Counted from the first letter of the stretch, positions 14,819 to 35,332 are shown. The stretch: DNA of 64,000 nt from Candidatus Omnitrophota bacterium (GCA_022703585.1 JAKLDJ010000007.1:25338-89337); one strand, 5' to 3'. Numbers and translations: made by a program. The notes: generated by a model from the letters alone, not told the origin.

Positions 14819-14831
14819 GGGAATACCTAAG

Positions 14832-14918
14832 ATGAACGAAAATCCCAAAAATATTAATATGATGATGTGTTGCATGCGGATGTGTTGCTTCCACGGTAGT
14901 GGAGGAACGCCTGTGTGA
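14832..14918 (+). CDS. Unannotated 28-codon ORF encoding a Cys/Met-rich peptide (candidate leader peptide)
   Basis: atg aac gaa aat ccc aaa aat att aat atg atg atg tgt tgc atg cgg atg tgt tgc ttc cac ggt agt gga gga acg cct gtg tga translates to MNENPKNINMMMCCMRMCCFHGSGGTPV. RBS-like aaggga lies 9 nt upstream. It is below the ORF-track length cutoff. Confidence 0.4.
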   Translation: MNENPKNINMMMCCMRMCCFHGSGGTPV

Positions 14919-14952
14919 GATATCATCTAATATATCAGGCGTAGGACGGGAT

Positions 14953-14992
14953 AACCCACTGCCAAGGAAAGAAAAAGGTCGGTGGGTTTTTT
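14953..14992 (+). terminator. Terminator/attenuator-like hairpin with T-run between the small ORF and the yezD-like gene
   Basis: aacccac ... gtgggtt stem (7 bp, large loop) followed by ttttttatttt. Confidence 0.45.
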
Positions 14993-15026
14993 ATTTTCTA
15001 AATTTATAAAATACAGGAGAGATGAA

Positions 15027-15218
15027 ATGAGCTTGAGCCAAAATACAAAAAGCATCATCAACGATGCCATTGTCAAAGACATACGGGATGCGGTGGATGA
15101 TTTGGAATACGGTACAGTGGTTATTACGGTACACAATAAAAAGATCACCCAGATCGAGACCGCGCGCAAGAAACGTTTCGATGATGTCTGGAAGGTTGAG
15201 GAAGGAGGTGGGATCTAA
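15027..15218 (+). CDS. YezD/DUF2292-family small protein
   Basis: MSLSQNTK...LEYGTVVITVHNKKITQIETARKKRF matches the DUF2292 pattern (YG-V-L/ITIH-QITQI-KxRF). RBS aggaga lies 6 nt upstream. The listed ORF starts 45 nt earlier. Confidence 0.7.
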   Translation: MSLSQNTKSIINDAIVKDIRDAVDDLEYGTVVITVHNKKITQIETARKKRFDDVWKVEEGGGI

Positions 15219-15339
15219 AAATGATTGTTGGCGTGTTGGTCCTTGCCGGACTACCGGTGGGACGTTTTTAAGAATGAATCTAAACGTCGAATGCTACCTG
15301 TCATCTGGAGCGAGGACACAAAAAAAGGAAAATAAAGAA

Positions 15340-16206
15340 ATGAAAAAGTTAATATTGTCTATTGCGTTTATTGTTCTGGCGGTTTTATTTGTAAGTGACA
15401 AGGTGTTTGCCGGTCCGCCATTTAACAATCTTGAAGGTGTCGGGGGTGTCGCGTTTAACCCGTTGGCGTATTTGGCTGATTCCGACGGAGAAAAGAGCCA
15501 TTTAAAAATCGGCAAGACCGAGGTTATTGGCTTACCCAGATTTGGCGGCTGGTATGTGAGCTTGCCGGATGCGAAGATCGATTGGACATCGGTTGGGGTT
15601 GCGGACACGATTTTTAAGCGGTTAGAAGTTTCCTATGGTTATCAAGTTGTTGCCTGGGAAGACCATCCGACGTTTCGCAAGAACAATCTTGGAGCCAAGT
15701 TTCTGGTATTGCCGGAAAACTCTTTTGACACAAAGTTTCTTCCAGCTCTTTCGATCGGAACGATTTATAAGACGACAAGCCATACGGCGTTACGAAAAAT
15801 AGCCGGGTTCTCGGACCTTCGCTCCAGCGGACAGGATTGGTATGCGGTCGCGACCAAGACCATTACTCAGTTGCCGCGTCCGGTCATCGTTTCCGGAGGC
15901 GTGCTTTCTTCTCAAGGATTCGTTACCGGCGTGTTGGGTTTCCATGACAAAAGAAAGACAACCGGCTTTGCCAATGTGGATGTGGTTCTTCCTAAGAACA
16001 TTGTTATTGGTTATGAGTTTAAACAAGGAGAGCAGTTCGCGGTCCATAAAAATGCCAATTATTGGGAAGCGCATTTGGCCTGGCTTGCGAATAATGACCT
16101 GACCCTTATTGCGGCGTATACGGACACCAGCAGTTACACCAAGTCCGGAAATACCAGACAAGGGTTAGGAAGTGGTTTTGTTTTAAGTGCGCAGTATGCG
16201 TTTTAG
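15340..16206 (+). CDS. Secreted outer-membrane beta-barrel protein of unknown function
   Basis: Signal peptide MKKLILSIAFIVLAVLFVSDKVFAG, alternating amphipathic strands, C-terminal aromatic (…LSAQYAF). The listed ORF 15064.. has a long spurious N-terminal extension overlapping the previous gene. Confidence 0.6.
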   Translation: MKKLILSIAFIVLAVLFVSDKVFAGPPFNNLEGVGGVAFNPLAYLADSDGEKSHLKIGKTEVIGLPRFGGWYVSLPDAKIDWTSVGVADTIFKRLEVSYGYQVVAWEDHPTFRKNNLGAKFLVLPENSFDTKFLPALSIGTIYKTTSHTALRKIAGFSDLRSSGQDWYAVATKTITQLPRPVIVSGGVLSSQGFVTGVLGFHDKRKTTGFANVDVVLPKNIVIGYEFKQGEQFAVHKNANYWEAHLAWLANNDLTLIAAYTDTSSYTKSGNTRQGLGSGFVLSAQYAF

Positions 16207-16213
16207 AAAATGA

Positions 16214-17572
<1,359 letters not shown>

Positions 17573-17589
17573 AAAGGTCTTAGACGGAC

Positions 17590-17719
17590 ACAACTTGCGG
17601 AACGAAGTGGGGCAAGTTGATGTCCGACTTAGACCCTTGACATCCGACGAGTTACTCGAGGGATGTCAAGGGTCAATTCGTCCCGCAACTTATGTTCACT
17701 TCGTTCCATAAGTTGCGGA
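17590..17719 (+). promoter_or_regulatory. Structured intergenic leader upstream of cysK with several mutually exclusive helices
   Basis: caacttgc/gcaagttg (8 bp) encloses ggaacgaagtg, which is also complementary to cacttcgttcc about 100 nt downstream (11 bp). There is a central 14-bp perfect hairpin gacccttgacatcc/ggatgtcaagggtc, and ccgcaactt/aagttgcgg (9 bp) sits just 5' of the cysK RBS. Confidence 0.5.
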
Positions 17720-17738
17720 CTCATTGAAGGAGATTCTC

Positions 17739-18668
17739 ATGTCGAAAACTTTTTCTAACATTACAAAAACGATCGGTAACACCCCGCTGGTGAAGATTAA
17801 CAAGCTTGCCGAAGGGCTGCCTGCGATCATTCTGGCCAAGCTGGAATTCTTTAACCCGCTCTCAAGCGTCAAGGACCGTATCGGTGTGGCCATGATCGAG
17901 GCCGCCGAGAAAGAAGGGAAGCTCAAGAAAGATTCCGTGATTATCGAGCCCACCAGCGGCAACACTGGCATTGCCTTGGCGTTTGTCGCGGCTGCCAAAG
18001 GGTATCGGCTGGTTTTAACCATGCCTGATACCATGAGTGTCGAGCGCCGGCAATTGCTGGCGATTTTGGGAGCGGAATTGGTTTTAACCGAGGGCGCTAA
18101 AGGAATGAAGGGAGCGGTCGAAAAAGCCGAAGAGCTCGCCCGGCTTACCCCGAATAGTTATGTTCCCCAGCAGTTTAATAATCCGGCGAATCCGGAGATC
18201 CACCGCCGGACCACAGCTGAAGAAATTTGGCGGGATACCGACGGGAAAGTGGATATCTTTATTGCCGGAATCGGAACCGGCGGAACCATTACCGGCGTGG
18301 GCGAGGTTTTAAAACAACGGAAGCCCACGGTAAAAATCATCGGCCTGGAGCCGGCGGATTCTCCGATTCTCTCCGGAGGAAAACCGGGCCCGCACAAGAT
18401 CCAGGGGATAGGCGCGGGTTTTATTCCTGGGAATCTTAACCGCGCGATTATCGATGAAATCATCACCGTGCGCCACGAGGATGCCGGGGAAACCACGCGC
18501 GCGCTCGCGAAGACCGACGGAATCCTGGGCGGAATTTCTAGCGGCGCGGCAGTTTGGGCGGCTTTACAGGTCGGCAGGCGTCCGGAATTCAAAGGGAAAA
18601 CCATTGTAACGGTCTTGCCCAGCTCCGGCGAGCGGTATTTGTCGACCTGGCTTTTTCAAAAACCATAA
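17739..18668 (+). CDS. cysK: Cysteine synthase A (O-acetylserine sulfhydrylase)
   Basis: [23 protein letters not shown]...SVKDRIG...[12 protein letters not shown]... is the canonical CysK/CysM PLP fold. RBS aaggag upstream. The listed ORF starts 15 nt earlier. Confidence 0.9.
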
Positions 18669-18830
18669 GAGGGACAGACCCCGCCGTTACCCCGACCTGT
18701 CCCCTTCTCACGCTTGGGACAGTCCCAAGTGTGGCAGAGGGACACACCCAAGTTACGGCGGGGTCTGTCCCAGGTGTAATTTGGGGACTGTCCCAGAATT
18801 GCACCTGGAGCTGTCCCCGAAGTAAAAAGT
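18669..18830. repeat. Cluster of GGGACAG/CTGTCCC palindromic repeats (REP-like), about 160 nt
   Basis: At least seven copies of GGGAC(A/T)G or its complement, including the perfect palindromes gggacagtccc and gggactgtccc. The 17-bp inverted repeat gggacagaccccgccgt ... acggcggggtctgtccc lies here. Both strands give mirror-image ORFs (18554..18874 + and 18589..18879 -), which is symmetry rather than coding. Confidence 0.7.
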
Positions 18831-18878: not shown

Positions 18879-18906
18879 TTGACGACGGTTAGCCGCGGAA
18901 TATAAT
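18879..18906 (+). promoter_or_regulatory. Candidate sigma70 promoter for the ehr operon (TTGACG, 16-nt spacer, TATAAT), followed by a ~230-nt leader
   Basis: Reads cattGACGacggttagccgcggaaTATAATatc. Confidence 0.45.
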
Positions 18907-19138: not shown

Positions 19139-20962
19139 ATGCCCGGGTTGTTTCTTTTTGATCCACTGTCAATTTTCTTTATTTTTGTTATCGCAATCGT
19201 TTCTTTGCCTTCCGCTGTTTATTCCGTCGGATATTTAAAAGGTGGGGGATCGCGATTTGCAACGACTCTGTCCTGGATTTTATTATGCCTTTTTGTGGCA
19301 TCCATGGGGCTAGTGGTAACGGTTAATAACGTTATCGCCTTTCTCGTTGCCTGGGAAATCATGTCTCTGGTTTCGTATTTTCTGGTTATCGCCGACGCCA
19401 AACACGAGCGCTCCGTCCAGGCGGGCACGATTTATATCATCATGACCCACATCGGCACGGCTTTTTTAGTTGCCGCCTTCATGATCATGGCTAAATATGC
19501 CGGCTCGTTTAATTTTGCCGCCATCAAAAGTGCCTGCCTGGTCATGCCGCCGCAAATTAAAAACATTATTTTCCTGTTACTCTTGGTCGGATTCGGGACC
19601 AAGGCGGGAATAGTTCCTCTCCATATCTGGTTGCCCTATGCCCATCCGCAGGCGCCGAGCCATATCTCTAGCATTATGTCCGGGGTCATGATCAAGACCG
19701 CGATTTACGGCATTATCCGGTTTGTGATTTATCTTTTGAGCGCGGATACGGCTTGGTGGGGAATATTGATTCTGATCTTGGCAATCATTTCCTGTCTGGT
19801 CGGAGTTATTTACGCTCTTATGGAACACGATCTTAAACGGTTACTCGCCTACCACAGCGTCGAGAATATCGGAATCATTCTTCTCGGCGTGGGGCTGTCG
19901 ATGTTTTTTCTGAGCATTCATCTTCCGTACTTGGCTGTATTCTCTTTGATAGCCGGATTGTATCATCTGGTCAATCACGCCATCTTTAAAGGGCTCCTGT
20001 TTCTCTGCGCCGGCAGTGTTTATAAAGCGACAGGCACGCGCGACATCGAAAAGCTCGGGGGGCTCATTAAAAAAATGCCCCAAACCGCCGTCTGTTTTTT
20101 GCTGGGGGCCATGGCGATCTCGGCGCTGCCGCCCTTAAACGGTTTTGTGAGCGAATGGTTGACGCTGCAGGCGTTCTTTTTGGGGGCTTTTAAAGTGACG
20201 GGGGTGAGCAGACTTTTCCTGGGAGTATGCGCAGCTCTGCTTGCCTTAACCGGGGGCCTGGCCGCTGCCTGTTTCGTTAAGGCTTTTGGAATCACATTTT
20301 TAGCCCAGTCCAGAAGCCGTCATGCCGAGGAAGCAAAAGAAGTTTCTTTGTCGATGAAGGTGGGAATGTATTTTCTTTCTTTCCTAACGGTTGCCTTTGG
20401 CCTGGCGGCGGTGCCGGTGATGCGATTGCTGGCTAAGGTTGCGGGCACAGCTACGGATGTCGATACCAAGGGCGTGATCTTTTCTCTTAATAATTTTATT
20501 GTCAATCCGCTGGCAGAAAAAGGTATTTATCTTTCACCACTATGGCTGGCGCTTGTTTTACTCATCCTGGGTGCTATTGCCTTTGCCCTTTTTCTTCTCC
20601 CCGGGCGAAGAAAAGCGGTTAGCTATAGCACCTGGGACTGCGGTTATTATCAATTGGACGCGCGAAACGAATATACCGCTACCGCATTTTCAAAACCTTT
20701 TAGGATCGCCTTTAGCTTCTTTTTGCTTCCGTACCGACGGACACAGAAGATCAGGGAATCGTTTTACCACGTTAAATCTTTCGTCTACGAAACACATACA
20801 ACCCCGGTTTTTCGAAAATATGGTTACGCGCCGGTTTTGGCTCTGGTCTTTGGCATTGCCAAATCCATGCGCCGGATCCAGCCCGGGAGCATTCATTTGT
20901 ATTTGTCGTATATTTTTGTCACCGTTATTTTATTAATTTTATTTATGGGCAGGTTTCATTGA
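19139..20962 (+). CDS. ehrA: Ehr module subunit A: NuoL/MrpA/HyfB-like proton-pumping membrane subunit
   Basis: 607 aa polytopic protein of the NADH-dehydrogenase L/M/N (Mrp antiporter-like) family. Confidence 0.8.
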   Translation: MPGLFLFDPLSIFFIFVIAIVSLPSAVYSVGYLKGGGSRFATTLSWILLCLFVASMGLVVTVNNVIAFLVAWEIMSLVSYFLVIADAKHERSVQAGTIYIIMTHIGTAFLVAAFMIMAKYAGSFNFAAIKSACLVMPPQIKNIIFLLLLVGFGTKAGIVPLHIWLPYAHPQAPSHISSIMSGVMIKTAIYGIIRFVIYLLSADTAWWGILILILAIISCLVGVIYALMEHDLKRLLAYHSVENIGIILLGVGLSMFFLSIHLPYLAVFSLIAGLYHLVNHAIFKGLLFLCAGSVYKATGTRDIEKLGGLIKKMPQTAVCFLLGAMAISALPPLNGFVSEWLTLQAFFLGAFKVTGVSRLFLGVCAALLALTGGLAAACFVKAFGITFLAQSRSRHAEEAKEVSLSMKVGMYFLSFLTVAFGLAAVPVMRLLAKVAGTATDVDTKGVIFSLNNFIVNPLAEKGIYLSPLWLALVLLILGAIAFALFLLPGRRKAVSYSTWDCGYYQLDARNEYTATAFSKPFRIAFSFFLLPYRRTQKIRESFYHVKSFVYETHTTPVFRKYGYAPVLALVFGIAKSMRRIQPGSIHLYLSYIFVTVILLILFMGRFH

Positions 20963-21063
20963 CTTTCTTAGAACCCAAAGAAGCATAAGGTAGTCAATGT
21001 TACCTTTTTCCCGACGAAAATGAATTTTATATCTCTGTTATTGTAAAGAAAAAGGTTAATAAA

Positions 21064-21984
21064 ATGGACATCCTGATTACTATCGCGCAGCTTATTGTCT
21101 TTATTGTGGTCTCGCCTTTTATAAGCGGATTGATCAGCAAAATAAAAAATAATATCCGCATGCGAAAAGGGCAGAGCATCTTTCAGCCGTATTATAATTT
21201 CTTTAAACTTTTCGCCAAAGGCGAGGTAGTTTCCCAAACCGCTTCTTGGATCTTTAAAGTGACCCCTTTTGTGGTGATCGCTTCTTCTTTGGCCGCGGCA
21301 TCACTGGTTCCGGCGCTCATTACCTCCGGGCCTTCCTTTTTCTTGGGGGATTTTCTGGCGCTGATATTTATTCTCGCCCTGGGCCGTTTCTTTATGGCAC
21401 TTGCGGCACTGGACACGGGCAGTGCTTTTGGAGGAATGGGTTCTTCCCGGGAAATGTTTATATCAAGCCTGGTTGAGCCGGCGGTGTGCCTGGTTATTTT
21501 CGCGGTTTCCTTGCAATTCGGCACGACCAATATCGCGTCATTCAGCCACATTCACATGGTGTCCATTTCTTCTCTGGCGGCGGTTGCTGCTTTATTCTTT
21601 GTTGTTATCGCGGAAACCTCGCGCATCCCGGTCGATAATCAGGAAACGCATCTGGAATTGACCATGGTACACGAGGCCATGGTCCTGGAATATTCGGGCC
21701 GGTCGCTGGCGCTTATTGAATTGGCTTCTTACATAAAACAAATGATGTGGTTTTTTCTTATCGCCCAAATTATTTTCCCGATCGCGTTACCGATTTTTGG
21801 AAATGGGGGACAATTTTTCTATTGGTTTTTGTGGTATTTAGCCAGGATTTTAATTATCGCTATTGCCATGGCTGTGGTGGAGGCTTCCGTCGCTAAAATG
21901 CGTTTATTTAGAGTGGCGGATTTTCTAGGCTTCGCGGTTGTTTTGGCAATGGTCGCAACGGTCTGCGCCATTTTAGGAGTCTGA
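21064..21984 (+). CDS. ehrB: Ehr module subunit B: NuoH/HycD/HyfC-like membrane subunit
   Basis: 306 aa; the N-terminal region RMRKGQSIFQPYYNFFKLFAKGEV resembles the NuoH/HycD conserved loop. Confidence 0.75.
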   Translation: MDILITIAQLIVFIVVSPFISGLISKIKNNIRMRKGQSIFQPYYNFFKLFAKGEVVSQTASWIFKVTPFVVIASSLAAASLVPALITSGPSFFLGDFLALIFILALGRFFMALAALDTGSAFGGMGSSREMFISSLVEPAVCLVIFAVSLQFGTTNIASFSHIHMVSISSLAAVAALFFVVIAETSRIPVDNQETHLELTMVHEAMVLEYSGRSLALIELASYIKQMMWFFLIAQIIFPIALPIFGNGGQFFYWFLWYLARILIIAIAMAVVEASVAKMRLFRVADFLGFAVVLAMVATVCAILGV

Positions 21985-21985
21985 T

Positions 21986-22621
21986 ATGCAAGGAATCGTC
22001 CTTTTCGGTGTTTTGGCGTGTACGTACTTGATGGTTATCGCCAAGCGAATGCCGGCTTTGATCCGCAACTTTCGCTATCAATCGTTCTTTTTGTTCTTGG
22101 CAACTTTTGTTACCGCGTTTCAGGAGCGGCAAATCGATTTGTACATCATCGCCGGATTATTGTTCGTGCTTAAGGTCATCGCGATTCCGTATGTTTTGTA
22201 CCGGGTCATCAAAAGGACGAAGGTTAACGAAGACTTAGGATTGTTTGTCAACGCCCAATTGTCGCTTCTCTCCGCCTTAGGGCTGACCTATCTATCCTGG
22301 ATTTTAGCCAGGCATTTGGTTGCCCCGGTTGACCGGGTTGAGGTTTCGACGTTTACGGTGGCTTTATTCATGGTGTCCACCGGGATATTTTTAATGATCC
22401 TGCGCATGACCGCGCTGGCGCAGATCATCGGCTTATTGGTTATGGAAAACGGGCTTTTTCTTTTGGCGTCGATGGTTTCGGGGGGCATGCCGTTTTTTGT
22501 CGAGATCGCCATATTCTTTGATGTCTTTGTGAGCGTTGTTATCATGGGATTTTTTCTTTACCGGATCAATAAACTTTTTACCCATATCGACGTTAATAAG
22601 CTTTCGCGTTTAAAGGGATAA
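21986..22621 (+). CDS. ehrC: Ehr module subunit C: HyfE-like small membrane subunit
   Basis: 211 aa, 6-7 TM, similar in size and hydropathy to hydrogenase-4 subunit HyfE. Confidence 0.6.
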   Translation: MQGIVLFGVLACTYLMVIAKRMPALIRNFRYQSFFLFLATFVTAFQERQIDLYIIAGLLFVLKVIAIPYVLYRVIKRTKVNEDLGLFVNAQLSLLSALGLTYLSWILARHLVAPVDRVEVSTFTVALFMVSTGIFLMILRMTALAQIIGLLVMENGLFLLASMVSGGMPFFVEIAIFFDVFVSVVIMGFFLYRINKLFTHIDVNKLSRLKG

Positions 22622-22625
22622 AGCA

Positions 22626-24083
22626 ATGCTGATATTTTTTATTTTGGGAATTCCGATTCTGCTGGCAGCTGGAGCCTTTTTCTCAAAAAGGCCCAGGGTA
22701 TTCGGAATTATTAATGTCTTTGGCTACTTAAGCATTTTATTGGCTTCAATCGTGCTTTTAAAAGATATTGCCTTTGCCGGCCACACACTTTTCTTCTTTA
22801 GTTTTCTTTATATCGATACTCTAAGCGCGTATTTTATTTTTGTTATCAGTGTGGTTAGCTTTGCCACAGCGCTTTATTCCGTCGGTTATATAGGAAAGGA
22901 TATGCAATCGGGGGCGATATCGGAAAATAAAGCAAAAATGTATTATTTGCTTTTTAATCTGTTTTGCTTTTCGATGTTTTTTGTCCCGGCGGTCAATAAT
23001 TTGGGCATGCTTTGGGTGGCTATTGAAATGACAACGCTGATCTCCGCGTTTTTGGTGGGATTTTATAACACCAAGCAATCGGTGGAAGCAGCCTGGAAAT
23101 ATATTATTATCTGCTCGGTGGGAATTATCTTCGCGCTTTTAGGCACAATCCTTTTTTCTTACGCGTTTTCGCTTGCCGGGGGCGCCAAAAGCCTTAATTG
23201 GACAGATATGGTGGCTGCGGCCGGGGGAATGGATAAAAATATCCTTAAAGTCGCCTTTATCTTTATTCTCGTCGGTTACGGGACCAAGGCGGGTTTGGCT
23301 CCCATGCACACCTGGCTGCCGGACGCGCACAGCCAGGCGGTTACCCCCATTAGCGCGCTTCTTTCCGGGGTTTTATTAAAGACCGCGATTTACGCTATTC
23401 TTAGATTCGGCATCATTGTGATTGAGGGGGTGGGATTTGGGTATTTCAGCCACCTGATGATTTTGCTGGGGTTGATCTCGCTAGGCGTATCCTGCAGCTT
23501 TATTCTGGTTCAAAAAGATTTAAAACGGCTTTTGGCCTACAGCAGCATTGAACATGTCGGAATAATTGCTATCGGCTTAGGGTTAGGCACGCCGCTCGCT
23601 TGGGGTGGCGCTTTATTGCATGTTTTTAATCATGCCGTGACTAAGTCGCTCATGTTTTTTGGCGCCGGGGATATTGTCAGCGCCTACAAAAGGCACAACA
23701 TGAAGATGATTCGCGGGGTTATAAGGGTTTTGCCCTTTGCCGGAGTAATGACGCTGGCAGGCATGTTTGCCTTAACCGGTTTTCCGCCGTTTTCCATTTT
23801 TGTCAGCGAACTCATAATCATTATCGCCGCGTTTACCAAGGGGTCTTACGTCGTGGCTGTCCTGTTTTTGCTATTTATCGCGATTATCTTCGGCGCCTTC
23901 GCCTATCAATTCGGTAAAATGCTTTTTGGCAATCTTCCCAAAGGAATGGCGAAGGCGCCGGAACCTTTAAGCGGAAAGCTGGCGTTCTTATTTTTGTTCG
24001 TTCAAATGCTGGCGGTGGGCGGTGTGGTTCTATTCATGAAGAAGGACTTATTATGGATTGTGCAGGGATTATTAACGAGATAA
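22626..24083 (+). CDS. ehrD: Ehr module subunit D: NuoM/N/HyfF-like antiporter-type membrane subunit
   Basis: 485 aa, NADH dehydrogenase M/N family (…GLAPMHTWLPDAH… motif). Confidence 0.8.
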   Translation: MLIFFILGIPILLAAGAFFSKRPRVFGIINVFGYLSILLASIVLLKDIAFAGHTLFFFSFLYIDTLSAYFIFVISVVSFATALYSVGYIGKDMQSGAISENKAKMYYLLFNLFCFSMFFVPAVNNLGMLWVAIEMTTLISAFLVGFYNTKQSVEAAWKYIIICSVGIIFALLGTILFSYAFSLAGGAKSLNWTDMVAAAGGMDKNILKVAFIFILVGYGTKAGLAPMHTWLPDAHSQAVTPISALLSGVLLKTAIYAILRFGIIVIEGVGFGYFSHLMILLGLISLGVSCSFILVQKDLKRLLAYSSIEHVGIIAIGLGLGTPLAWGGALLHVFNHAVTKSLMFFGAGDIVSAYKRHNMKMIRGVIRVLPFAGVMTLAGMFALTGFPPFSIFVSELIIIIAAFTKGSYVVAVLFLLFIAIIFGAFAYQFGKMLFGNLPKGMAKAPEPLSGKLAFLFLFVQMLAVGGVVLFMKKDLLWIVQGLLTR

Positions 24084-25642
24084 AAGCAAAATTTCCCGGT
24101 TTTTCTGTGATTAGCGCGGTGCAGAATTACCCGGATGAGATTTGCCTGTATGTCCGGCCGGAGATCTTTAAAGACACCTGTCTGGTCTTGCATAAAATTC
24201 TTTTATCTCCGGTAAAAATGCTTTTTGCCCTGGATGAACGCAAGATGGCGAATAAATTTACAGTCCACTGCGTTTTTCTCAGTGCGAAAAGCGGTCAATG
24301 GGTCACGGTTGCTATTGATGTCCCGGCCGAAAATCCCTGTTTTGATTCGTTGGCAAAAAGCATTTATTCGGCCAGCCTTTTTGAACGTGAAATTTATGAA
24401 ATGTTTGGCATCAAGCCCGAGGGGAATCCTGATTTGAGGCGGCTTCGTTTGCATGATGAGGTTTGGCCGCAGGGAAGTTTCCCTTTGCGCAAAGATTTTG
24501 CGGGCGCGCCAAAAAATATTTCAGCAGAGAATTTACCCGCCTACAAATTCTCTAAAGTCGAAGGCAACGGCATCTTTGAAGTCCCGGTTGGCCCGGTGCA
24601 CGCCGGGATCATCGGGCCGGGGCATTTTCGTTTTAGCGTTGCCGGAGAACCGATCATTAATCTGGAGATCAGGCTCGGCTTTACCCACCGGGGAGTTGAA
24701 AAACTTTTTGAAGGAAAATTTTTAACGCAAGCGCTGCGCCTCGCGGAAAGCGTTGACGGAGAATCAGCATTCGCTCATAGTCTCGCTTTTACCCAGGCCG
24801 CGGAAAAGATTGCCGGGATTTCCATTTCTCTTCAGGCGGCTTACGCCCGGGCAATATTTTTGGAGCTTGAGCGGATGTATAATCACGCCAATGATATCGG
24901 CGGCATTGCCGTTGATGTGGGTTTTAGTTTTCCGGCAGCCATTGCCTCGATCATTAAGGAATCTATTTTGCAATTGAATGAAAAGTTAACCGGCAGCCGG
25001 TATTTAAAGGGGATTAATACTGTTGGGGGAGTTTTAAGGAGCCCGGAGGAACATGAAATAAGAATGGTTTCTGGCTTTTTAAAAGAGATCAAAAAAGATT
25101 TTAACCAGCTTGCCAAAATCCTTACGACAAGCGTTTCGTTTATGGATAGGGTGGACACAACCGGCGTATTAAAGAAGAAAACCGCCGAGGACATCGGGGT
25201 TGCGGGTTTGGCAGGCCGCGCTTGCGGGATCGCTTTGGATCTAAGGAAAAATTTTGCGGGTGTTTACCACGAGGCCAAATTTAAAATGGCTGTGGAGCAA
25301 AGCGGCGATGTCCTGGCCCGGTTAAGGGTAAGGATCGCCGAATTTGAGGAATCAATGCGGTTGGTTGAGTTCTTTTTAAGTAAAATCACCCCCGGCGAAA
25401 CAGCCTTTCCTCAGCCGCAACGAAAAGAAGGAGAAGCCTTAGGTTTCGCGGAAAGCTGGAGGGGGCCGGTTTTGTATTGGCTTAAAACCGATTGTAACGG
25501 CGCAATCGAGCGCTGCAAGATCGTCGACGCCTCTTTTTGCAACTGGCAGGGCTTGTCCTACGCGGTTTTAGGAAATATTATTCCCGATTTTCCACTATGC
25601 AATAAGAGTTTTGACCTTTCGTACCCGGGTAACGACTTATAG
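24053..25642 (+). CDS. ehrL: Ehr 'large subunit': NuoC-NuoD (HycE-like) fusion lacking both Ni-Fe cysteine motifs
   Basis: The N-terminal half is NuoC-like (SLFEREIYEMFGIKPEGNPDLRRL). The C-terminal half is NuoD/HycE-like (VPVGPVHAGIIGPGHFRFSVAGEPIINLEIRLGFTHRGVEKLFEGKF). Where MbhL has ERxCGxCxxxH this protein has AESVDGESAFAHS, and the C-terminus has DASFCN instead of DPCxxCxxR. Confidence 0.8.
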   Translation: MDCAGIINEIKAKFPGFSVISAVQNYPDEICLYVRPEIFKDTCLVLHKILLSPVKMLFALDERKMANKFTVHCVFLSAKSGQWVTVAIDVPAENPCFDSLAKSIYSASLFEREIYEMFGIKPEGNPDLRRLRLHDEVWPQGSFPLRKDFAGAPKNISAENLPAYKFSKVEGNGIFEVPVGPVHAGIIGPGHFRFSVAGEPIINLEIRLGFTHRGVEKLFEGKFLTQALRLAESVDGESAFAHSLAFTQAAEKIAGISISLQAAYARAIFLELERMYNHANDIGGIAVDVGFSFPAAIASIIKESILQLNEKLTGSRYLKGINTVGGVLRSPEEHEIRMVSGFLKEIKKDFNQLAKILTTSVSFMDRVDTTGVLKKKTAEDIGVAGLAGRACGIALDLRKNFAGVYHEAKFKMAVEQSGDVLARLRVRIAEFEESMRLVEFFLSKITPGETAFPQPQRKEGEALGFAESWRGPVLYWLKTDCNGAIERCKIVDASFCNWQGLSYAVLGNIIPDFPLCNKSFDLSYPGNDL

Positions 25643-25666
25643 ATAATTAATTATGCTGGTATTTAA

Positions 25667-25747
25667 CACAGATTCTCACAGATCAAACACAGATGGCCAC
25701 AGATAAAACTATCTGTGAATATCTGTTTAGATCTGTGTCTATCTGTG
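25667..25747. repeat. Dyad-symmetric heptamer array: four CACAGAT followed by four ATCTGTG
   Basis: Reads cacagattctcacagatcaaacacagatggccacagataaaactatctgtgaatatctgtttagatctgtgtctatctgtg. It sits in a 157-nt gap between ehrL and ehrS. Confidence 0.8.
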
Positions 25748-25799
25748 CTCAATAAGAGCAAAAGTAAATCGACATTATAAACTTATAGGATTTTTTGCC

Positions 25800-26315
25800 A
25801 TGTATCGAATATTAAAATATAGAATGCTCAAAGGAATTGTCACCCGGCATATTGCGCCCGAAGCTTTGGGCGAAATCGAATCAACCGGCAAAGAGCTTAA
25901 GACTTTGATCCGCAAGAAATTCGGTAAATCCTTGCATATCCGCGAGGTCGATACTGGCTCGTGCAATGCCTGCGAATCCGAAATTATTTCGGCCAATAAT
26001 CCTATTTATGACCTGCAGCGATTTGGCATCAATTTTGTGGCGTCCCCGCGGCACGCCGATGCCCTTCTTGTGACGGGACCGGTTTCCAAGAATATGCTTT
26101 TGGCTTTAAAGAAAACCTACGACGCCATGCCGGAACCGAAATTCGTCATTACCGTCGGCGATTGCGCCTTGGATTGCGGTGTTTTTAAAGGCTCTTACTA
26201 CACCGCGGGCGCTGTCGCCCAAATCCTCCCCGTCGCCCTTCACATCCCGGGGTGCCCGCCGAGTCCCTCAGCTATCATTAAATCGCTGCTTGCATTCTTG
26301 AGGCAGCATGATTAG
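25800..26315 (+). CDS. ehrS: Ehr small subunit: NuoB / hydrogenase small-subunit-like protein with retained Fe-S cysteines
   Basis: 171 aa with Cys in GSCNACESE, VGDCALDCG and IPGCPPSP, matching the NuoB/MbhJ cluster-ligand pattern. Confidence 0.8.
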   Translation: MYRILKYRMLKGIVTRHIAPEALGEIESTGKELKTLIRKKFGKSLHIREVDTGSCNACESEIISANNPIYDLQRFGINFVASPRHADALLVTGPVSKNMLLALKKTYDAMPEPKFVITVGDCALDCGVFKGSYYTAGAVAQILPVALHIPGCPPSPSAIIKSLLAFLRQHD

Positions 26316-26319
26316 CAAG

Positions 26320-26620
26320 CTCCAATAACCAAGATACAAATCCCAAACAATATTCAATAAGTAAATTCCAATGACCAAACACGGTTTGGTTATTGGGGAT
26401 TGGGTATTGAAATTTGTTTGTATCTTGTTTCTTGGAATTTGTATCTTAACAAACCTAGGGCATAGGTTACGGTTAGGGTTAGGATGCCCGTATCGGTTAC
26501 GTTTAGCGGTTAGGTCAAAACTTTAGGCCGAATGCCGTTACCGAAAGACGATACGGGCTTCGTAACCGTTACCTTTACCGAGTAACGATACGGGCTTCGT
26601 TACCGTAACCGAAAGACTTT
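26320..26620. repeat. Repeat-dense non-coding block: imperfect palindromes, telomere-like GGTTAG hexamers, two ~25-nt direct repeats
   Basis: ccaataacc/ggttattgg; caagatacaaat with two copies of its reverse complement atttgtatctt; ggttacggttagggttagg; gcccgtatcg inverted relative to two copies of cgatacgggcttcgt(a/t)accgt(t/a)acc, flanked by ccgaaagac. No ORF support. Confidence 0.7.
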
Positions 26621-26787: not shown

Positions 26788-27639
26788 ATGTCAAAATTAG
26801 AATTTATTTCAAGCGCATCGGATTTCAACCTTACCGATGCTTTCTATTTGTCCAAAATTTCGGAATTAGTCTATGAAGATTTGGACAAGATTGAGGATGT
26901 TCTTAAGGAAGAGTATGGTTTATCAAAATACAAACCATTCGAGGTGAAAGAAACAGATACGCAAGCTTTTCTAGCATCTAATGAGGATATTTTAGTGCTG
27001 GCCTTTAGAGGAACTACTTCATGGGCTGACTGGATGACTAATTTCAAAATAGTAATGGTTTCGTCTAGCGTAGGGAAAGTTCATTCTGGCTTTGCTCGGT
27101 CTTTAAATTCGATTTGGGATGATGTAAACGATTCTATTCTTTCTGGGAAGGATAGAAATCAAACTCTTTGGGTTGCTGGTCATAGTTTAGGTGGGGCGTT
27201 GGCTACGTTGGCTGTCGATAGATTAACTGAAGAAAATTCAGAAATAGTTGATGGTTTGTATACATTTGGACAACCTAGAGTGGGGGATAAACAGTTCGCC
27301 GATAACTTTGACAGGAAGATGAAGCGGCATGCTTTTCGTTTAGTTGATGATGAAGACATTGTAACGAAGATACCCATACCTCCGGGCTATCGTCACATAG
27401 GAACGGAGTACTTTATTAACAATAAAGGTCTGCTGTCTAAGAATAATAATTTCTGGGAGTGGTTTAGGAGTTGCTCGGAATCGGTAGCAATACGTTCAAG
27501 CGACGATGCAAACAAATATCGGGCACAAAACCCAGGGGGGATAAGAGATCACGGTGCTAGTTATTATTCTAAATACTTGTATCAAAATTTACAAAAGAAG
27601 AGAAAGAGTCCTTTTTTAAGCTACATCAATGGGGCGTAG
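26788..27639 (+). CDS. Lipase class 3 (alpha/beta-hydrolase) family protein, no signal peptide
   Basis: Nucleophile elbow LWVAGHSLGGALATLAV and the Lipase_3 core (YTFGQPRVGD). The gene is markedly AT-rich compared with its neighbours. Confidence 0.8.
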   Translation: MSKLEFISSASDFNLTDAFYLSKISELVYEDLDKIEDVLKEEYGLSKYKPFEVKETDTQAFLASNEDILVLAFRGTTSWADWMTNFKIVMVSSSVGKVHSGFARSLNSIWDDVNDSILSGKDRNQTLWVAGHSLGGALATLAVDRLTEENSEIVDGLYTFGQPRVGDKQFADNFDRKMKRHAFRLVDDEDIVTKIPIPPGYRHIGTEYFINNKGLLSKNNNFWEWFRSCSESVAIRSSDDANKYRAQNPGGIRDHGASYYSKYLYQNLQKKRKSPFLSYINGA

Positions 27640-27741
27640 CATGAAATGTTCCGGGGGCACACCTTAACCCTTCGACAAACTCAGGGTAAATGTTTCACGT
27701 TAAGAAGTGTTCGCTAACGCTCGCTGTAATACTTAATTAAA

Positions 27742-28206
27742 ATGAAAAATAATCTCGTATCTATTTATGTTGCACATGACATTCTCGAACTGAATGGGGT
27801 AAAAGACGTTTTAGAGAAGAACGGCATTGCTGTCGTGATTCGTGCCTATGAGGACAGCGCATTTAAAGAGATTTTTAAACCGCAGTACGGCGCGGGGGAA
27901 TTGCTGGTCGCTAGCGACAGAGAGACGGAAGCAAAGAAAATCATAAACGACTATCTCCAAGCAGAAAAACAATTGATGCTTCCGGAAGACGAAAAGCCTA
28001 AGAATTGTTTCGATGATATAAAGAAAAAAGGCAGGCAATCTGCAGTTATTGTTCCAGTAGTGGTTTCTATTATTTTTATGGCATTGGGGATTTTGTTTGT
28101 AGTATACGGAAATATGGCCGGAAGAGTTTGCGGCGGGATATGCCTGTCTTTTTCGTTGGCAGCTATTTGGATTTCCCATCTGAATGCTATGGACAATCGA
28201 AATTAG
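27742..28206 (+). CDS. DUF2007-like (putative signal-transducing) domain protein with a C-terminal TM anchor
   Basis: N-terminal domain MKNNLVSIYVAHDILELNGVKDVLEKNGIAVVIRAYED with a C-terminal hydrophobic helix (AVIVPVVVSIIFMALGILFVVYG). AT-rich. Confidence 0.55.
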   Translation: MKNNLVSIYVAHDILELNGVKDVLEKNGIAVVIRAYEDSAFKEIFKPQYGAGELLVASDRETEAKKIINDYLQAEKQLMLPEDEKPKNCFDDIKKKGRQSAVIVPVVVSIIFMALGILFVVYGNMAGRVCGGICLSFSLAAIWISHLNAMDNRN

Positions 28207-28311
28207 ATGGAATCCCGGTGACACCGGAATTTGAGGGAGTTAAAAAAACGTGCCGGGTACAAATTAGGGGCAGGGTGATTCCCGGGAATCATAGAGGTAA
28301 TTCTACGAAAA

Positions 28312-28683
28312 ATGAAAATACTTAATCTTGCTCTCAATGATGTAGAAAACGGCAGCATCTACAAGTATATTGCAGAAGATTCAGATGATATCGAAATCGC
28401 TCTTATTCATACCGATAATATTGAAGAAAGTTCTGGTTCCTATTTGATTACTGGTGAGGTTACCTTAGCCGATGGGAGTAGGTATCCTGCTATTTTCGGA
28501 ATAAATTCCGATGATGGCGGTGAAATGTCTGAGTTTTATTTTCTAGTCGATTCTGATGGATGGGTCTCAAGCAGTGATAACCTTGAAGAATTATTAAGAA
28601 AGAAGAAGGAAGAAGTTTTTCCTTTCAGATATCATTTAAATATTAAAGTTGAAGGTGACTTGCATACTGAAAATCAATATTAG
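28312..28683 (+). CDS. Hypothetical acidic protein (123 aa)
   Basis: The ORF has a start and is very acidic (many D/E). No recognisable domain. AT-rich. Confidence 0.45.
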   Translation: MKILNLALNDVENGSIYKYIAEDSDDIEIALIHTDNIEESSGSYLITGEVTLADGSRYPAIFGINSDDGGEMSEFYFLVDSDGWVSSSDNLEELLRKKKEEVFPFRYHLNIKVEGDLHTENQY

Positions 28684-28703
28684 CGGGAAAGAAGGGGACG
28701 GGT

Positions 28704-28790
28704 TAGCGAATAGTGAATAGTCAATGGTGAATGGTTAATGGTGAATGGTGAATAGTTAATAGTGAATAGCGGATAGCGGATAGTAAAGCG
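28704..28790. repeat. Tandem heptanucleotide repeat (consensus TGAATRG, about 12 units)
   Basis: Reads gcgaatag tgaatag tcaatgg tgaatgg ttaatgg tgaatgg tgaatag ttaatag tgaatag cggatag cggatag. Confidence 0.8.
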
Positions 28791-28811
28791 GCCTAGCGTC
28801 ATTCGCGGCCC

Positions 28812-28840
28812 TTGAGTTTCTTAAAAAATTGAAGTATAAT
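28812..28840 (+). promoter_or_regulatory. Candidate sigma70 promoter for the ORF6N gene (TTGAGT, 17-nt spacer, TATAAT)
   Basis: Reads cTTGAGTttcttaaaaaattgaagTATAAT, followed by a CCAAC-rich leader. Confidence 0.4.
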
Positions 28841-28946
28841 TTCTTCTAACCTTCCAATTCGAATTATCCTCACATTCCAACTCACAGTCATCTCCTAACT
28901 TTCAGTCCACTTTCCAACTTCAAAAATTTCAAGGAAAGGAAATTTC

Positions 28947-29471
28947 ATGAAAAAAAGCACCGCTTTGGAAGTTGTCGAGCAAAAGATTTTCTTGATCCGG
29001 GGTCAGAAAGTCATGATCGACCTACATTTGGCCGAGCTTTACGATGTTCGGACAAAAGTCCTTGTCCAAGCCGTCAAGCGAAACAAAAGAAGGTTTCCTA
29101 AGGATTTTATGTTTCAACTGACCGATCAAGAATTTGAGAGTTTGAGGTCACAATTTGTGACCTCAAACCGCGGTGGAAGACGGTACCGGCCGTATGCCTT
29201 TACGGAACAGGGTGTCGCGATGCTTTCAAGCGTTCTCAACGGCGAGAGGGCTGTTCAAGTCAATATTGTCATTATGAGGGTTTTTGTCAAATTGAGAGGA
29301 ATTTTATTTGCTCATAAAGAACTTGAGCAAAAACTGAACGCGCTTGAGCAAAAAGTCGAAAGTCACGACGCCCATATCCAGGGGATCTTTGATGTTATCC
29401 GTAAATTGATGGCAGCACCTGTTGAGAAACCAAAACAGAGAATCGGGTTTCATCCGTCCCCTTCCGGCTAA
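28947..29471 (+). CDS. ORF6N-domain protein (KilA-N-like, phage antirepressor-associated DNA-binding domain)
   Basis: IRGQKVMIDLHLAELYDVRTKVLVQAVKRNKRRFPKDFMFQLT...SQFVTSNRGGRRYRPYAFTEQGVAMLSSVL matches the ORF6N domain consensus. Confidence 0.8.
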   Translation: MKKSTALEVVEQKIFLIRGQKVMIDLHLAELYDVRTKVLVQAVKRNKRRFPKDFMFQLTDQEFESLRSQFVTSNRGGRRYRPYAFTEQGVAMLSSVLNGERAVQVNIVIMRVFVKLRGILFAHKELEQKLNALEQKVESHDAHIQGIFDVIRKLMAAPVEKPKQRIGFHPSPSG

Positions 29472-29472: not shown

Positions 29473-29515
29473 CGGGAATTTGAGAATTTGAGGTGACAAT
29501 TTGACACCTCAAAAA
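29473..29515. repeat. Downstream duplicate of an internal ~40-nt segment of the ORF6N gene
   Basis: gaatttgagaatttgaggtgacaatttgacacctcaaa (after the stop) versus gaatttgagagtttgaggtcacaatttgtgacctcaaacc inside the CDS (about 29127-29168). The internal copy contains the perfect palindrome tttgaggtcacaa t ttgtgacctcaaa. Confidence 0.7.
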
Positions 29516-29523
29516 AGGAGTAG

Positions 29524-29567
29524 GAGGGGCGCAAGCCCCGCTTTTTCAGGCGGGGCTTGCGCCCCTC
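29524..29567 (+). terminator. Strong hairpin after the ORF6N gene (terminator-like)
   Basis: gaggggcgcaagccccgc tttttcag gcggggcttgcgcccctc: 18-bp perfect stem followed by a T-rich stretch. Confidence 0.6.
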
Positions 29568-29585
29568 GGTTTACTTTTCCCGCCA

Positions 29586-29820: not shown

Positions 29821-31266
29821 GTGTCCAACCAACAAATCCTGCTTTCGGTTATCTTCGTTCCAACCTTGGGCGCTTTCCTTTTACCTATCCTGGAGCGGGT
29901 GTCAGCCGGGTTACGCAACTGGTCGGCGCTTGTTTTTGTCCTGGTTTCGGTTGCCGGCTCTTCTTTGCTCGCACCTTTAGCCCTGAAGGGACAAGCTGTA
30001 AGTGTAAGCCACGCATTGCCTTTGGGATTTAACTTCGTCTTTACCGCGGACGGCCTGGCGGTATTTATGGCGCTGGTGTCATCATTCATCAGCGCGGTTA
30101 TCGTCCTTTATTCCTTCGGTTATATAAGCCACTATGAGAATCAAAACGAGTATTATCTCATGGTGGTTTTGTTTTTAGGCTCCATGATGGGGCTGGTTTT
30201 TTCGGGAAATCTCATCTTCCTTTATCTGTTTTGGGAAATCACGGCCATCACCAGCTGGCGGTTGATCGGATTCTTTAGAGAGAAAAATGACGTCTTTCGA
30301 GCCGACAAATCGTTTTTGGTCACGGCCTTCGGTGCTTTGTCCATGCTTTTGGGCTTTTTAATGATCTACCAGCAGTCCGGCTCATTTGACCTGTCGGTTA
30401 TTAAGGAAACGTTTAGGTTTAATCCGCTATCCAATACCGCGATATTTTTAATCCTTATCGGAATATTCTCTAAATCAGCCACCTTGCCGTTCCATACCTG
30501 GCTTCCGGATGCAGGGGTAGCTCCGTCGCCGGTAACCGCGCTACTGCACGCGGCGGTTCTGGTAAAGATTGGCGTCTATGTCTTTGCCCGGCTTTTTGTG
30601 GTCAATCTTTCGCTGGGCGAATTCTGGCATGTAGCGGTACCGGTTATTGCGGGCGCCAGCGCGCTTGTTTCAGCCGGGGCAGCACTTATTGACACCAATT
30701 TAAAAAGAATTATTGCCTATTCGACCATCAGTCAAATAGGTTTTATTTTTCTTGGCCTCGCCATCGGAAACGAAATGGCGGTTGCCGGCGGGCTTTTGTA
30801 TATCTTGATGCACGGCCTGGCCAAGGGCGGGTTGTTCTTGTGCGCCGGTATCATTGAGCAGAACACCAAGACAAAAGACATTACTAAAATGGGCGGCCTG
30901 ATCGCGACCATGCCGGTCACGGCGATCGCATTTTTATTCTGCGCGTTTTCGGTCATGGGCATACCGCCGTTTGGCGGATTCTTTAGCAAATTTATGGTTA
31001 TTGTGGGAACGTTACAGGCCGGTCATGTATGGATCGCGCTTATTTTTATTCTGGGCGCTTTTTTGACTATCCTTTATCTTTTTAGAGCCTTTAACATGAT
31101 CTTCTTAGGCGAACTTAAAACTCCGGGCGTAAGGGAAGGCTCAGCCGTTATGGTTTTTAGCGTGGCGCTGTTGGCATTTCTTTCGCTGGCAGGCGGCATT
31201 TTTATCCGGTATCCGAATGAATTCGTAGGGCTGGTTTTGCAGCCCATATTTGGGATGGTGCGGTAA
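29821..31266 (+). CDS. MrpD/NuoN-like antiporter-type membrane subunit (MbhH-like), GTG start
   Basis: 481 aa, NADH dehydrogenase L/M/N family (…LPFHTWLPDA…). Confidence 0.8.
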   Translation: MSNQQILLSVIFVPTLGAFLLPILERVSAGLRNWSALVFVLVSVAGSSLLAPLALKGQAVSVSHALPLGFNFVFTADGLAVFMALVSSFISAVIVLYSFGYISHYENQNEYYLMVVLFLGSMMGLVFSGNLIFLYLFWEITAITSWRLIGFFREKNDVFRADKSFLVTAFGALSMLLGFLMIYQQSGSFDLSVIKETFRFNPLSNTAIFLILIGIFSKSATLPFHTWLPDAGVAPSPVTALLHAAVLVKIGVYVFARLFVVNLSLGEFWHVAVPVIAGASALVSAGAALIDTNLKRIIAYSTISQIGFIFLGLAIGNEMAVAGGLLYILMHGLAKGGLFLCAGIIEQNTKTKDITKMGGLIATMPVTAIAFLFCAFSVMGIPPFGGFFSKFMVIVGTLQAGHVWIALIFILGAFLTILYLFRAFNMIFLGELKTPGVREGSAVMVFSVALLAFLSLAGGIFIRYPNEFVGLVLQPIFGMVR

Positions 31267-33092: not shown

Positions 33093-33097
33093 AAGAA

Positions 33098-34528: not shown

Positions 34529-34529
34529 T

Positions 34530-35015: not shown

Positions 35016-35332
35016 GCCCTGATTTGACCCAAGTATTTTGGCCCTTTAGTGCTGCGGCTATTCTTTTGTTTGTGATGGGGACCTATTACGTGCTGGTCAC
35101 ATTTAATCTTATTCGCGCTTTAATCGGCGTCGAGATTTTAATTAAAGGCGCAACTCTTTTGATTATTCTTGCCGGTTACGTGACCGGCAATACCGGCTTG
35201 ACCCAGGCTTTGGTTATCACCCTGATTGTGATCGAGGTCGTGATCATGGTGGTAGCGGGCGGGGTGATCTTATGCGTGTACCGGAATAATAAGTCGATCG
35301 ATGTTCGCGAATTACGGAGTTTGAAAGGTTAA
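35012..35332 (+). CDS. NuoK/MrpC-like (MbhG-like) small membrane subunit
   Basis: 106 aa, 3 TM, NuoK/MnhC pattern (LIGVEILIKGATLLIILAGY). Confidence 0.7.
   Translation: MSPDLTQVFWPFSAAAILLFVMGTYYVLVTFNLIRALIGVEILIKGATLLIILAGYVTGNTGLTQALVITLIVIEVVIMVVAGGVILCVYRNNKSIDVRELRSLKG

Follow-up and report, generated by a model that had tools for sequence, protein, structure and literature searches.

Among the relatives of complex I, an energy-converting-hydrogenase-related (Ehr) cluster of Geobacter sulfurreducens, GSU0739-45, was reportedly described by Coppi in 2005, and the MBS/Mbx complex of Pyrococcus furiosus (PDB 6U8Y) is said by Yu et al. 2020 to be Ni-Fe-less and to conserve energy, with its chemistry at the proximal [4Fe-4S] cluster. 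Here we analysed an Ehr operon of six genes, ehrA-B-C-D-L-S, in a 64,000-nucleotide (nt) stretch of a Candidatus Omnitrophota bacterium (GCA_022703585.1 JAKLDJ010000007.1:25338-89337; hereafter the window, from whose first letter all coordinates are counted), in which the subunit corresponding to the hydrogenase large subunit has lost the residues that hold Ni-Fe. The passages on Ehr in PMC6349859, PMC4758237 and PMC10284858 describe the family as that of Marreiros et al. 2013; Ehr complexes have no Ni-Fe binding centre (PMC13194489, PMC10284858, PMC6349859), and group 4f hydrogenases are their phylogenetic neighbours (PMC10284858). The Geobacter sulfurreducens Ehr comprises a NuoL-like EhrA, a HyfE-like EhrC, EhrL and EhrS, and its subunits are produced, respond to the electron donor and are most abundant on formate (PMC7894505). 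Ehr complexes are thus already named and repeatedly reported (PMC6349859, PMC10284858, PMC7894505, PMC4758237), and the Omnitrophota locus adds a family member rather than a new kind of system.

The Geobacter complex, compared here through its published subunit descriptions and not its sequences, resembles that of the window in subunit vocabulary and in the loss of Ni-Fe, but has seven genes, two of them EhrA, instead of six. Escherichia coli Hyf (formate hydrogenlyase 2, FHL-2) minus HyfA, HyfD and HyfH has the subunit make-up of the window's Ehr, and E. coli Hyc (FHL-1, PDB 7Z0S) and Hyf, which gave the best matches for EhrL, EhrA and EhrB, share with it the NuoC-NuoD fusion and the ND3-like C-terminus on the HycC/HyfB-type subunit. 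Unlike Hyc and Hyf, Ehr has no Ni-Fe ligands, no equivalent of HycE E193, no HycF/HyfH, HycB/HyfA or FdhF, no C-terminal extension of the large subunit and no dedicated protease. With complex I it has in common the Q-module plus P-module architecture and the antiporter-like Glu/Lys residues, whereas the N-module, NuoI/A/J and the quinone-site His38/Tyr87 are missing and the NuoB-like subunit has CxxC in place of CC. Mrp antiporters share the MrpA/D-like and MrpC/NuoK-like subunits with canonical charged residues; compared with them, Ehr adds a peripheral NuoB/C/D arm and a NuoH-like subunit and has no MrpB/E/F/G. MBS (whose MbsL is mentioned in PMC9474812) has 13 subunits, including a NuoI-like MbsN and Mrp-type small subunits, and the weaker matches of EhrD, EhrB and EhrL to it make Ehr a distant relative, not a member. 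No Ehr complex was found among the solved structures returned as PDB and Foldseek matches.

Results

Six-subunit composition of the locus

Six open reading frames (ORFs), all on the plus strand, fill positions 19139-26315 (Table 1). Their families were assigned with Pfam and NCBIfam profiles and their solved relatives by HMMER alignment to PDB chains, and the resulting layout, outer coordinates and family assignments agreed with those of an initial annotation made from the same DNA. The 31-nt overlap of ehrD and ehrL recurs unchanged in orthologous loci (for example L001, in which ehrD ends at 10031 and ehrL starts at 10001). The best NCBIfam matches in the operon were HyfB, HyfE and HyfF; since the equivalog scores of all proteins fell below the curated cut-offs (NuoD 208.6 vs 360; NuoH 38 vs 305), none of the six is a standard Nuo or Hyf orthologue.

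The initial annotation had also proposed that no NuoI-like ferredoxin subunit is encoded. Consistently with this, the Pfam search gave no Fer4 or NuoI match in the six proteins, and no CxxCxxCxxxC motif occurs in or near the operon, the only two in the 64-kb window lying at 38992-39126, inside the NuoI-like gene (38857-39288) of a downstream hydrogenase cluster. A small ferredoxin gene hidden in the 157-nt gap between ehrL and ehrS, or elsewhere, was considered and rejected, because the gap is a repeat hairpin and those two motifs are the only ones. The locus is thus almost certainly a NuoI-less ("type 1") six-subunit Ehr complex of the complex I/group-4 [NiFe]-hydrogenase superfamily.

Table 1 Genes, diagnostic segments and intergenic elements of the Ehr locus (positions in the window; residues in the protein named)
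Feature	Position (nt)	Residues	Strand	Description
EhrA	19139..20962		+	607 aa; HyfB/HycC/NuoL-like antiporter-like subunit, Proton_antipo_M, C-terminal ND3 (NuoA)-like extension
EhrB	21064..21984		+	306 aa; NuoH/HycD-like membrane anchor, NADHdh
EhrC	21986..22621		+	211 aa; HyfE-like, C-terminal half NuoK-like; HyfE model 1.2e-21
EhrD	22626..24083		+	485 aa; HyfF/NuoN/MbhH-like antiporter-like subunit; HyfF model 4.5e-139
EhrL	24053..25642		+	529 aa; NuoC-NuoD fusion, Complex1_30kDa + Complex1_49kDa (PF00329 + PF00346)
EhrS	25800..26315		+	171 aa; NuoB/MbhJ/HycG-like small subunit, Oxidored_q6
EhrB TM5-6 "ND1 loop" ETSRIPVDNQETHLELTMVHEAMVLEYSG	21613-21699	184-212	+	near-invariant within the clade
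EhrL beta1-beta2 loop GPVHAGIIGPGH	24590-24625	180-191	+	H183 = HycE H188; I187 = HycE D192 / Nqo4 H38; G188 = HycE E193
EhrL L1 equivalent AESVDGESAFAHS	24743-24781	231-243	+	aligns residue by residue with HycE RVCGICGFAHS and MbhL RMCGICSFSHN
EhrL "DASFCN"	25526-25543	492-497	+	RAPSFxN-type strand before L2; aligns with HycE RAATYAN and Nqo4 RAPSFVN
EhrL L2 equivalent SFDLSYPGNDL, then stop	25607-25639	519-529	+	aligns with HycE SLDPCYSC
Promoter-like site TTGACG-16-TATAAT	18879..18906		+	11/12 consensus match, ~230 nt before ehrA; consensus may not be that of Omnitrophota
ehrL-ehrS hairpin element	25650..25760		+	110 nt; four CACAGAT then four ATCTGTG units

Ni-Fe and quinone positions of EhrL

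EhrL aligned with E. coli HycE (9e-65), MbhL (5e-37) and the MBS chain 6u8y_L (7.4e-22), and its AlphaFold2 model (pLDDT 91.2, pTM 0.92) found HycE as the best fold match in Foldseek (TM-score 0.93), followed by E. coli NuoCD (0.89). Because AESVDGESAFAHS falls exactly on the L1 motif, the N-terminal Ni-ligand positions are D235 and S238, in place of HycE C241 and C244 in the HMMER alignment, and the Arg of RxCGxC has become S233. The replacement of the N-terminal RxCGxCxxxH motif, as first proposed, was therefore confirmed by the alignment with both HycE and MbhL. At the C-terminal site, the initial annotation had read DASFCN as the substitute for DPCxxCxxR. The absence of a CxxC pair stood, with S523 and G526 at the positions of HycE C531 and C534 and HycE D529 kept as D521, but the placement did not: DASFCN aligns instead with the RAPSFxN strand, and L2 corresponds to the last residues of the protein, whose end coincides with that of a processed hydrogenase large subunit. 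In the alignments with HycE, MbhL and Nqo4, EhrL thus had no CxxC pair at either of the true positions, L1 and L2.

The other catalytic residues of the superfamily are replaced as well. HycE E193 is the proton-donor Glu of the beta1-beta2 loop and exchanges protons with the terminal cysteine (PMC9474812); EhrL has a Gly there, in a loop that is the sole segment of the model with pLDDT <50. The quinone ligands H38 and Y87 of Thermus thermophilus Nqo4 correspond to I187 and G236, so that the His/Tyr pair of the NuoD quinone pocket is gone, and a full Nuo set is absent too. EhrL therefore lacks the Ni-Fe ligands, the proton donor of hydrogenases and the His/Tyr pair that binds quinone in complex I. 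Since all four Ni-Fe Cys positions are replaced, the Ehr complex of the window is predicted to be unable to bind Ni-Fe, and hence neither to make nor to split H2.

Retained Fe-S site and membrane subunits

The small subunit, by comparison, bore out the expectation that its Fe-S cysteines persist: C55, C58, C122 and C152 of EhrS (nt 25962-26255), four of four, align with the residues that bind [4Fe-4S] in MbhJ, HycG and NDUFS7. C55 and C58 are spaced as CxxC, as in hydrogenases, and not as the tandem CC of complex I; the best solved relative is P. furiosus MbhJ (9.4e-35) and the next HycG (1.2e-31), and the protein carries neither an extension nor a NuoI-like domain.

EhrA matched the HyfB model with 639 bits (model positions 76-667) and HycC at 6.4e-75, in an alignment that starts at HycC residue 75. 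Its key residues E73, K155, K186 and E339 correspond to HycC E135/L208/K239/E391, so EhrA retains the Lys of transmembrane helix (TM) 7, K155, that HycC has lost (HycC alignment; PMC9474812), and C501 in its ND3-like loop WDCGY corresponds to HycC C537 (alignment; PMC9474812). The EhrA N-terminus is shortened by ~70 residues throughout the clade of the window's operon (595-615 aa in L001-L013 vs 663-721 aa in other Ehr). Neither a frameshift nor an assembly error accounts for this, because the ORF is already maximal and the clade orthologues have this length with the same start. EhrB aligned with HycD (4.7e-34), each of the two glutamates E154 and E173 of EhrC is Glu in 51 of 52 homologues, and EhrD carries the charged residues E134, K221, K252 and E395.

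In the 14 clade loci described below, EhrA E73/K155/K186/E339, EhrD E134/K221/K252/E395, the NuoK-type Glu of EhrC, the EhrB TM5-6 loop, the EhrL loop and the four EhrS cysteines are invariant or close to it, and EhrA E73/K155/K186/E339, EhrD E134/K221/E395 and EhrC E154/E173 are conserved family-wide. The Ehr complex of the window thus keeps one Fe-S site, all pump residues and four coupling loops, and selection maintains the six-gene unit.

Conservation in the Omnitrophota clade

EhrL is 100% identical to a protein of a Candidatus Omnitrophota metagenome-assembled genome (MAG) and has more than 120 relatives at 64-72% identity, nearly all the named ones from Omnitrophota/Omnitrophica. A scan of species-representative genomes recovered the six-gene operon in the same order in at least 14 loci (amino-acid identity 56-78%), belonging to Omnitrophota, one Margulisiibacteriota (L009, EhrL 61% identical to that of the window), one unclassified bacterium and two MAGs labelled Planctomycetia; the operon is also present in the Omnitrophota-type metagenome loci L020-L022 and L063. 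All six ehr genes are under strong purifying selection, with dN/dS of 0.04-0.15 in pairs with unsaturated synonymous sites.

Besides the shorter EhrA, this Omnitrophota/Margulisiibacteriota clade is set apart by the change of the beta1-beta2 Glu to Gly, a residue ("IIEP") that nearly all other Ehr keep, and of the L1 Arg to Cys or Ser. Nearly all 14 loci are without Cys at the Ni-ligand positions, the exception being L005, with a Cys at the first. At L1, D-G-E-S was found in this genome alone; the clade and family form is S-G-D-S (consensus [SA]-G-D-[ST]).

The wider Ehr family

A full-library search with EhrL returned 7507 representative clusters, and among the best 150 of these most are without the Ni-Fe Cys. 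Cys-less members share a replacement signature, [SA]-G-D-[ST] for CGxC and L-S-Y-x-G-x-D-L/R for PCxxCxDR, and across 40 diverse Ehr large subunits S523, Y524, G526 and D528 never vary. At position 237 an acidic residue is conserved. In a neighbour-joining tree of 145 NuoD-domain sequences (distance-based, rough and not bootstrapped), Cys-containing NuoCD-fused proteins were basal and the Cys-less proteins formed a large derived radiation, within which EhrL of the window fell in the tight Omnitrophota/Margulisiibacteriota clade. The phylogeny proposed with the initial annotation accordingly places EhrL inside the Cys-less radiation, beside Cys-containing NuoCD-fused relatives, in agreement with PMC10284858.

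These Cys-containing relatives (proteins P0134, P0136 and others; loci L056, L088-L090, L095 and L097), the nearest Cys-containing kin, have the gene order of Ehr and a large subunit that ends in ...CxxCxDR without an extension, and are probably the group 4f hydrogenases placed beside Ehr in the literature (PMC10284858). Unlike the window's Ehr, they retain RICGxC / ELCYxC and the Glu, and their small subunit, a NuoI-NuoB fusion of 240 aa, contains two CxxCxxCxxxC motifs.

The gene order ABCDLS (or S-ABCDL) is near-universal in 80 further metagenomic loci, and ABCDLS recurs in ~90 loci overall. Two subtypes can be told apart by EhrS: type 1, which includes the locus of the window, has a short EhrS of 165-180 aa without a NuoI domain, and type 2 an EhrS with an N-terminal extension of ~110-135 aa that in several cases contains two ferredoxin-type motifs (a NuoI-NuoB fusion). 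All four EhrS cysteines are kept in 62 of 66 complete proteins (94%). The other four, the type-1 loci L037, L072, L084 and L098, have SCDD, TEGD, DVDN and DADN, respectively, at the ligand positions, while the EhrL signature, the EhrA (E-K-K-E) and EhrD charged residues and the EhrB loop are intact despite the loss; these loci seemingly encode complex-I-like assemblies without any redox cofactor. Four contigs (L050, L051, L054 and L081) each carry two differing Ehr-type clusters in tandem; in L050, L054 and L081 a "SISGDSS...GTDR" type adjoins a "TVAGDT[ST]...NLSYCGFDL" type with a single ferredoxin-like motif in EhrS.

Downstream hydrogenase

Twelve genes at 29821-39757 form a group-4 [NiFe]-hydrogenase cluster (three antiporter-like, NuoJ/K/A/B/C-like, large subunit, NuoH- and NuoI-like, and a HycI equivalog), probably of the "4g" type reported for Omnitrophota (PMC10066038). 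Its large subunit (36657-37910) has intact RVCGICSHAH and DPCFSCTDR motifs and a C-terminal extension of ~50 aa, and its best PDB match is MbhL (2.9e-99). The catalytically competent relative that the initial annotation had seen next to the Ehr operon is therefore real, although not directly adjacent: the two are 3.5 kb apart, with four unrelated genes between them. These genes (26788-29471) encode a class-3 lipase (lipase_3), a DUF2007 protein, an ORF without a family match (28312-28683) and a phage regulatory protein of the ORF6N/Rha type, after which comes a GC-rich hairpin at 29513-29578; the segment 26788-29471 may be a mobile DNA remnant.

PF00346 is matched by both EhrL (24053-25642) and the hydrogenase large subunit (36657-37910). 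An Omnitrophota survey scores "respiratory complex I" by this family (PMC10066038), and since PF00346 matches both proteins, complex I calls based on it may include Ehr and hydrogenases.

Flanking genes and repeats

The flanks of the 14 clade loci are not conserved, the sole recurrent neighbours being MacAB-TolC efflux genes, which follow the operon in five Omnitrophota loci. Beside the non-Omnitrophota Ehr operons (L023-L080), the commonest neighbours are an ArsR-type helix-turn-helix regulator (11 loci, always upstream), a histidine kinase (11) and an NtrC-type sigma-54 response regulator (8) rather than redox enzymes, which suggests a dedicated, signal-dependent regulation of these operons. 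In L013, three antiporter-like genes (178-5008; 639, 492 and 477 aa; NuoL/M/N-like) lie directly upstream of ehrA and possibly form the tail of a Nuo or hydrogenase operon. Upstream of the operon in the window, a block at 14375-18668 encodes an Rrf2-family regulator, a DUF3034 protein, an O-acetylhomoserine sulfhydrylase-type pyridoxal-phosphate enzyme and a cysteine synthase; this sulfur-amino-acid block is not kept beside ehr in other genomes. Two further ORFs of the window, 53191-54651 on the minus strand (486 aa) and 57590-58288 on the plus strand (232 aa), matched no Pfam family at E<=1e-5.

As RNA, the element between ehrL and ehrS folds into a single long hairpin (dG -45.5 kcal/mol, z = -8.2); because orthologous loci have no gap there and the genes abut, it is an insertion specific to this genome. 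Three other repeat arrays were observed: nested imperfect palindromes of GGGACAGTCCC-like units at ~22-23 nt spacing, with 50-nt arms that are 76% complementary, between cysK and the ehr promoter (18671-18825); and, 3' of ehrS, a palindrome of AAGATACAAA/TTTGTATCTT units (26317-26447) and one of GGTTACG/CGTAACC units with a 37-nt tandem direct repeat (26459-26617). Three intergenic elements around the operon follow the pattern "n copies, then n inverted copies", with a different short motif in each.

Discussion

These data support the initial reading of the locus as an Ehr-type, Ni-Fe-less complex-I-like module whose donor and acceptor are unnamed, with no redox partner linked to it. Our preferred account, to which we give a probability of about one half, is that the Ehr complex of the window is a redox-driven ion pump. 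The single [4Fe-4S] cluster of EhrS would take electrons from a soluble carrier of low potential, for which a 2[4Fe-4S] ferredoxin docked at the vacant NuoI site is the most plausible candidate, and would pass them to a small polar acceptor in what was once the Ni-Fe pocket, now remodelled (D235, E237, S238, H242, R470, D521, S523 and Y524). The charge and the conformational change would then be relayed through four loops (EhrL beta1-beta2, EhrB ND1, EhrA ND3-like and the EhrS loop) and make EhrA, EhrD, EhrC and EhrB translocate H+ or Na+. The nearest parallel would be MBS/Mbx of Pyrococcus, a Ni-Fe-less relative in which the proximal cluster is the presumed place of the chemistry. In this scheme we infer that the cluster is redox-active, which donor and acceptor it uses and which way the ions move. 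The NuoI-NuoB fused small subunit, an electron wire present both in the Cys-containing relatives and in type 2, argues that the family stayed redox-active after the loss of Ni-Fe. The kept cluster ligands, pump residues and coupling loops, the low dN/dS, the conserved operon and the production of the Geobacter homologue (PMC7894505) also speak for a pump.

Several observations weigh against such a pump. No electron-input module (NuoI, NuoE/F/G, Fdh or pyruvate:ferredoxin oxidoreductase (PFOR)) was found in the operon, no Fdh, PFOR or NuoEF genes within the 64-kb window, and no conserved redox partner in the flanks of related loci, with neither fdhA nor nuoEF within +/-10 kb of ~95 loci. The Glu that protonates the substrate in hydrogenases is lost in the clade (G188), and no residues could be assigned to acceptor binding. 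The four type-1 relatives that have replaced the Fe-S cysteines and kept the rest imply that some Ehr, at least, can do without the cluster, and the regulator genes beside Ehr in other phyla look more like those of a stress or ion-homeostasis system.

The main rival, which much of the same evidence would fit, is a machine that works independently of redox chemistry, either a secondary cation/proton antiporter of the Mrp kind or an ion- or metal-responsive transporter, with the peripheral arm as a cap or as a redox or ligand sensor gating the membrane module and the Fe-S cluster in a structural or regulatory role. NuoI-less Ehr would on this account be complex-I-shaped ion transporters or sensors and not oxidoreductases, with an oxygen-ligand pocket and a usually kept cluster gating an Mrp-like module, which we hold to be possible, at odds clearly below even. 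Donor module, acceptor site and linked partner genes are all absent from the operon, window and flanks searched, the cluster-less loci retain EhrA E-K-K-E, EhrD, the EhrB loop and the EhrL motifs, and a soft-metal Cys4 site has turned into a pocket of oxygen ligands (Asp/Glu, Ser, Ser, Tyr, Asp). In Marinobacter, a cassette resembling Ehr lies inside, and is co-regulated with, a copper-resistance locus (PMC8233155), and the ArsR-type, kinase and sigma-54 neighbours, together with the MacAB-TolC genes after the operon, point the same way. However, the regulators come from other phyla and not from the Omnitrophota clade, the four cysteines persist in 94% of EhrS and in every clade member under strong purifying selection, a two-cluster NuoI domain as in type-2 Ehr would be pointless without electron transfer, and the MrpE/F/G-type subunits that Mrp antiporters need are missing.

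Alternatively, Ehr could be the membrane module of a split enzyme for which genes at another place in the genome supply the catalytic input, be it a formate dehydrogenase plus NuoE/F-like subunits or some other oxidoreductase, as proposed for the closely related Ehr of Margulisbacteria and Saganbacteria (PMC6349859). The close match of the Margulisiibacteriota EhrL to that of the window and the peak of Geobacter Ehr subunits with formate as electron donor (PMC7894505) are in line with this, but its own authors offer it as a hypothesis only (PMC6349859), the fdhA and nuoEF genes that it calls for were not found in the window or near the ~95 loci, and without a NuoI-like connector there is no known wiring from an Fdh module to the NuoB cluster; we consider it unlikely. 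A functionless, decaying relic of a hydrogenase operon would explain the lost catalytic ligands and the extra hairpin insertion between ehrL and ehrS in this genome, and one study, which assumes such a relic, treats Geobacter Ehr as "nonfunctional" for H2 (PMC13194489), but the low dN/dS rules out a pseudogene and largely refutes this explanation. It is made very improbable also by six intact ORFs in every complete locus, by conserved replacement residues (S523, Y524, G526 and D528 invariant, position 237 acidic) and by a radiation of 7507 representative clusters, most of the best 150 of them Cys-less. Hardly credible, and slightly less likely than the relic, is a cryptic true [NiFe]-hydrogenase or quinone-reducing complex I with non-canonical ligands: the fold and subunit set are those of HycE/NuoCD, and automatic annotation names the protein "NADH-quinone oxidoreductase subunit C" or "Ni,Fe-hydrogenase III large subunit", yet the four Cys ligands, the proton-donor Glu and Nqo4 H38 and Y87 are all absent, each NCBIfam equivalog score is under its cut-off, the EhrS CxxC is not the CC of complex I, and the six-gene operon has no NuoE/F/G/I/A/J genes.

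An Ehr operon in an anaerobic candidate phylum will not surprise a specialist, and its uncultured host makes the function no easier to test. Ehr is among the few large and widespread branches of the complex I superfamily without an assigned reaction, and is frequently invoked as a "missing link" that joins hydrogenases to complex I. The transporter or sensor account, if true, would explain the loss of the Fe-S cysteines in four lineages, the absence of any linked redox partner and the metal/stress regulator and efflux neighbours. What took the place of the Ni-Fe ligands is not the product of random decay but an S/A-G-D-S/T ... S-Y-x-G-x-D signature that is conserved and subject to purifying selection, and this signature, together with the two subtypes (NuoI-NuoB fusion vs single cluster), the cluster-less members and the lack of a linked redox partner, provides leads for the function of the Ehr family.

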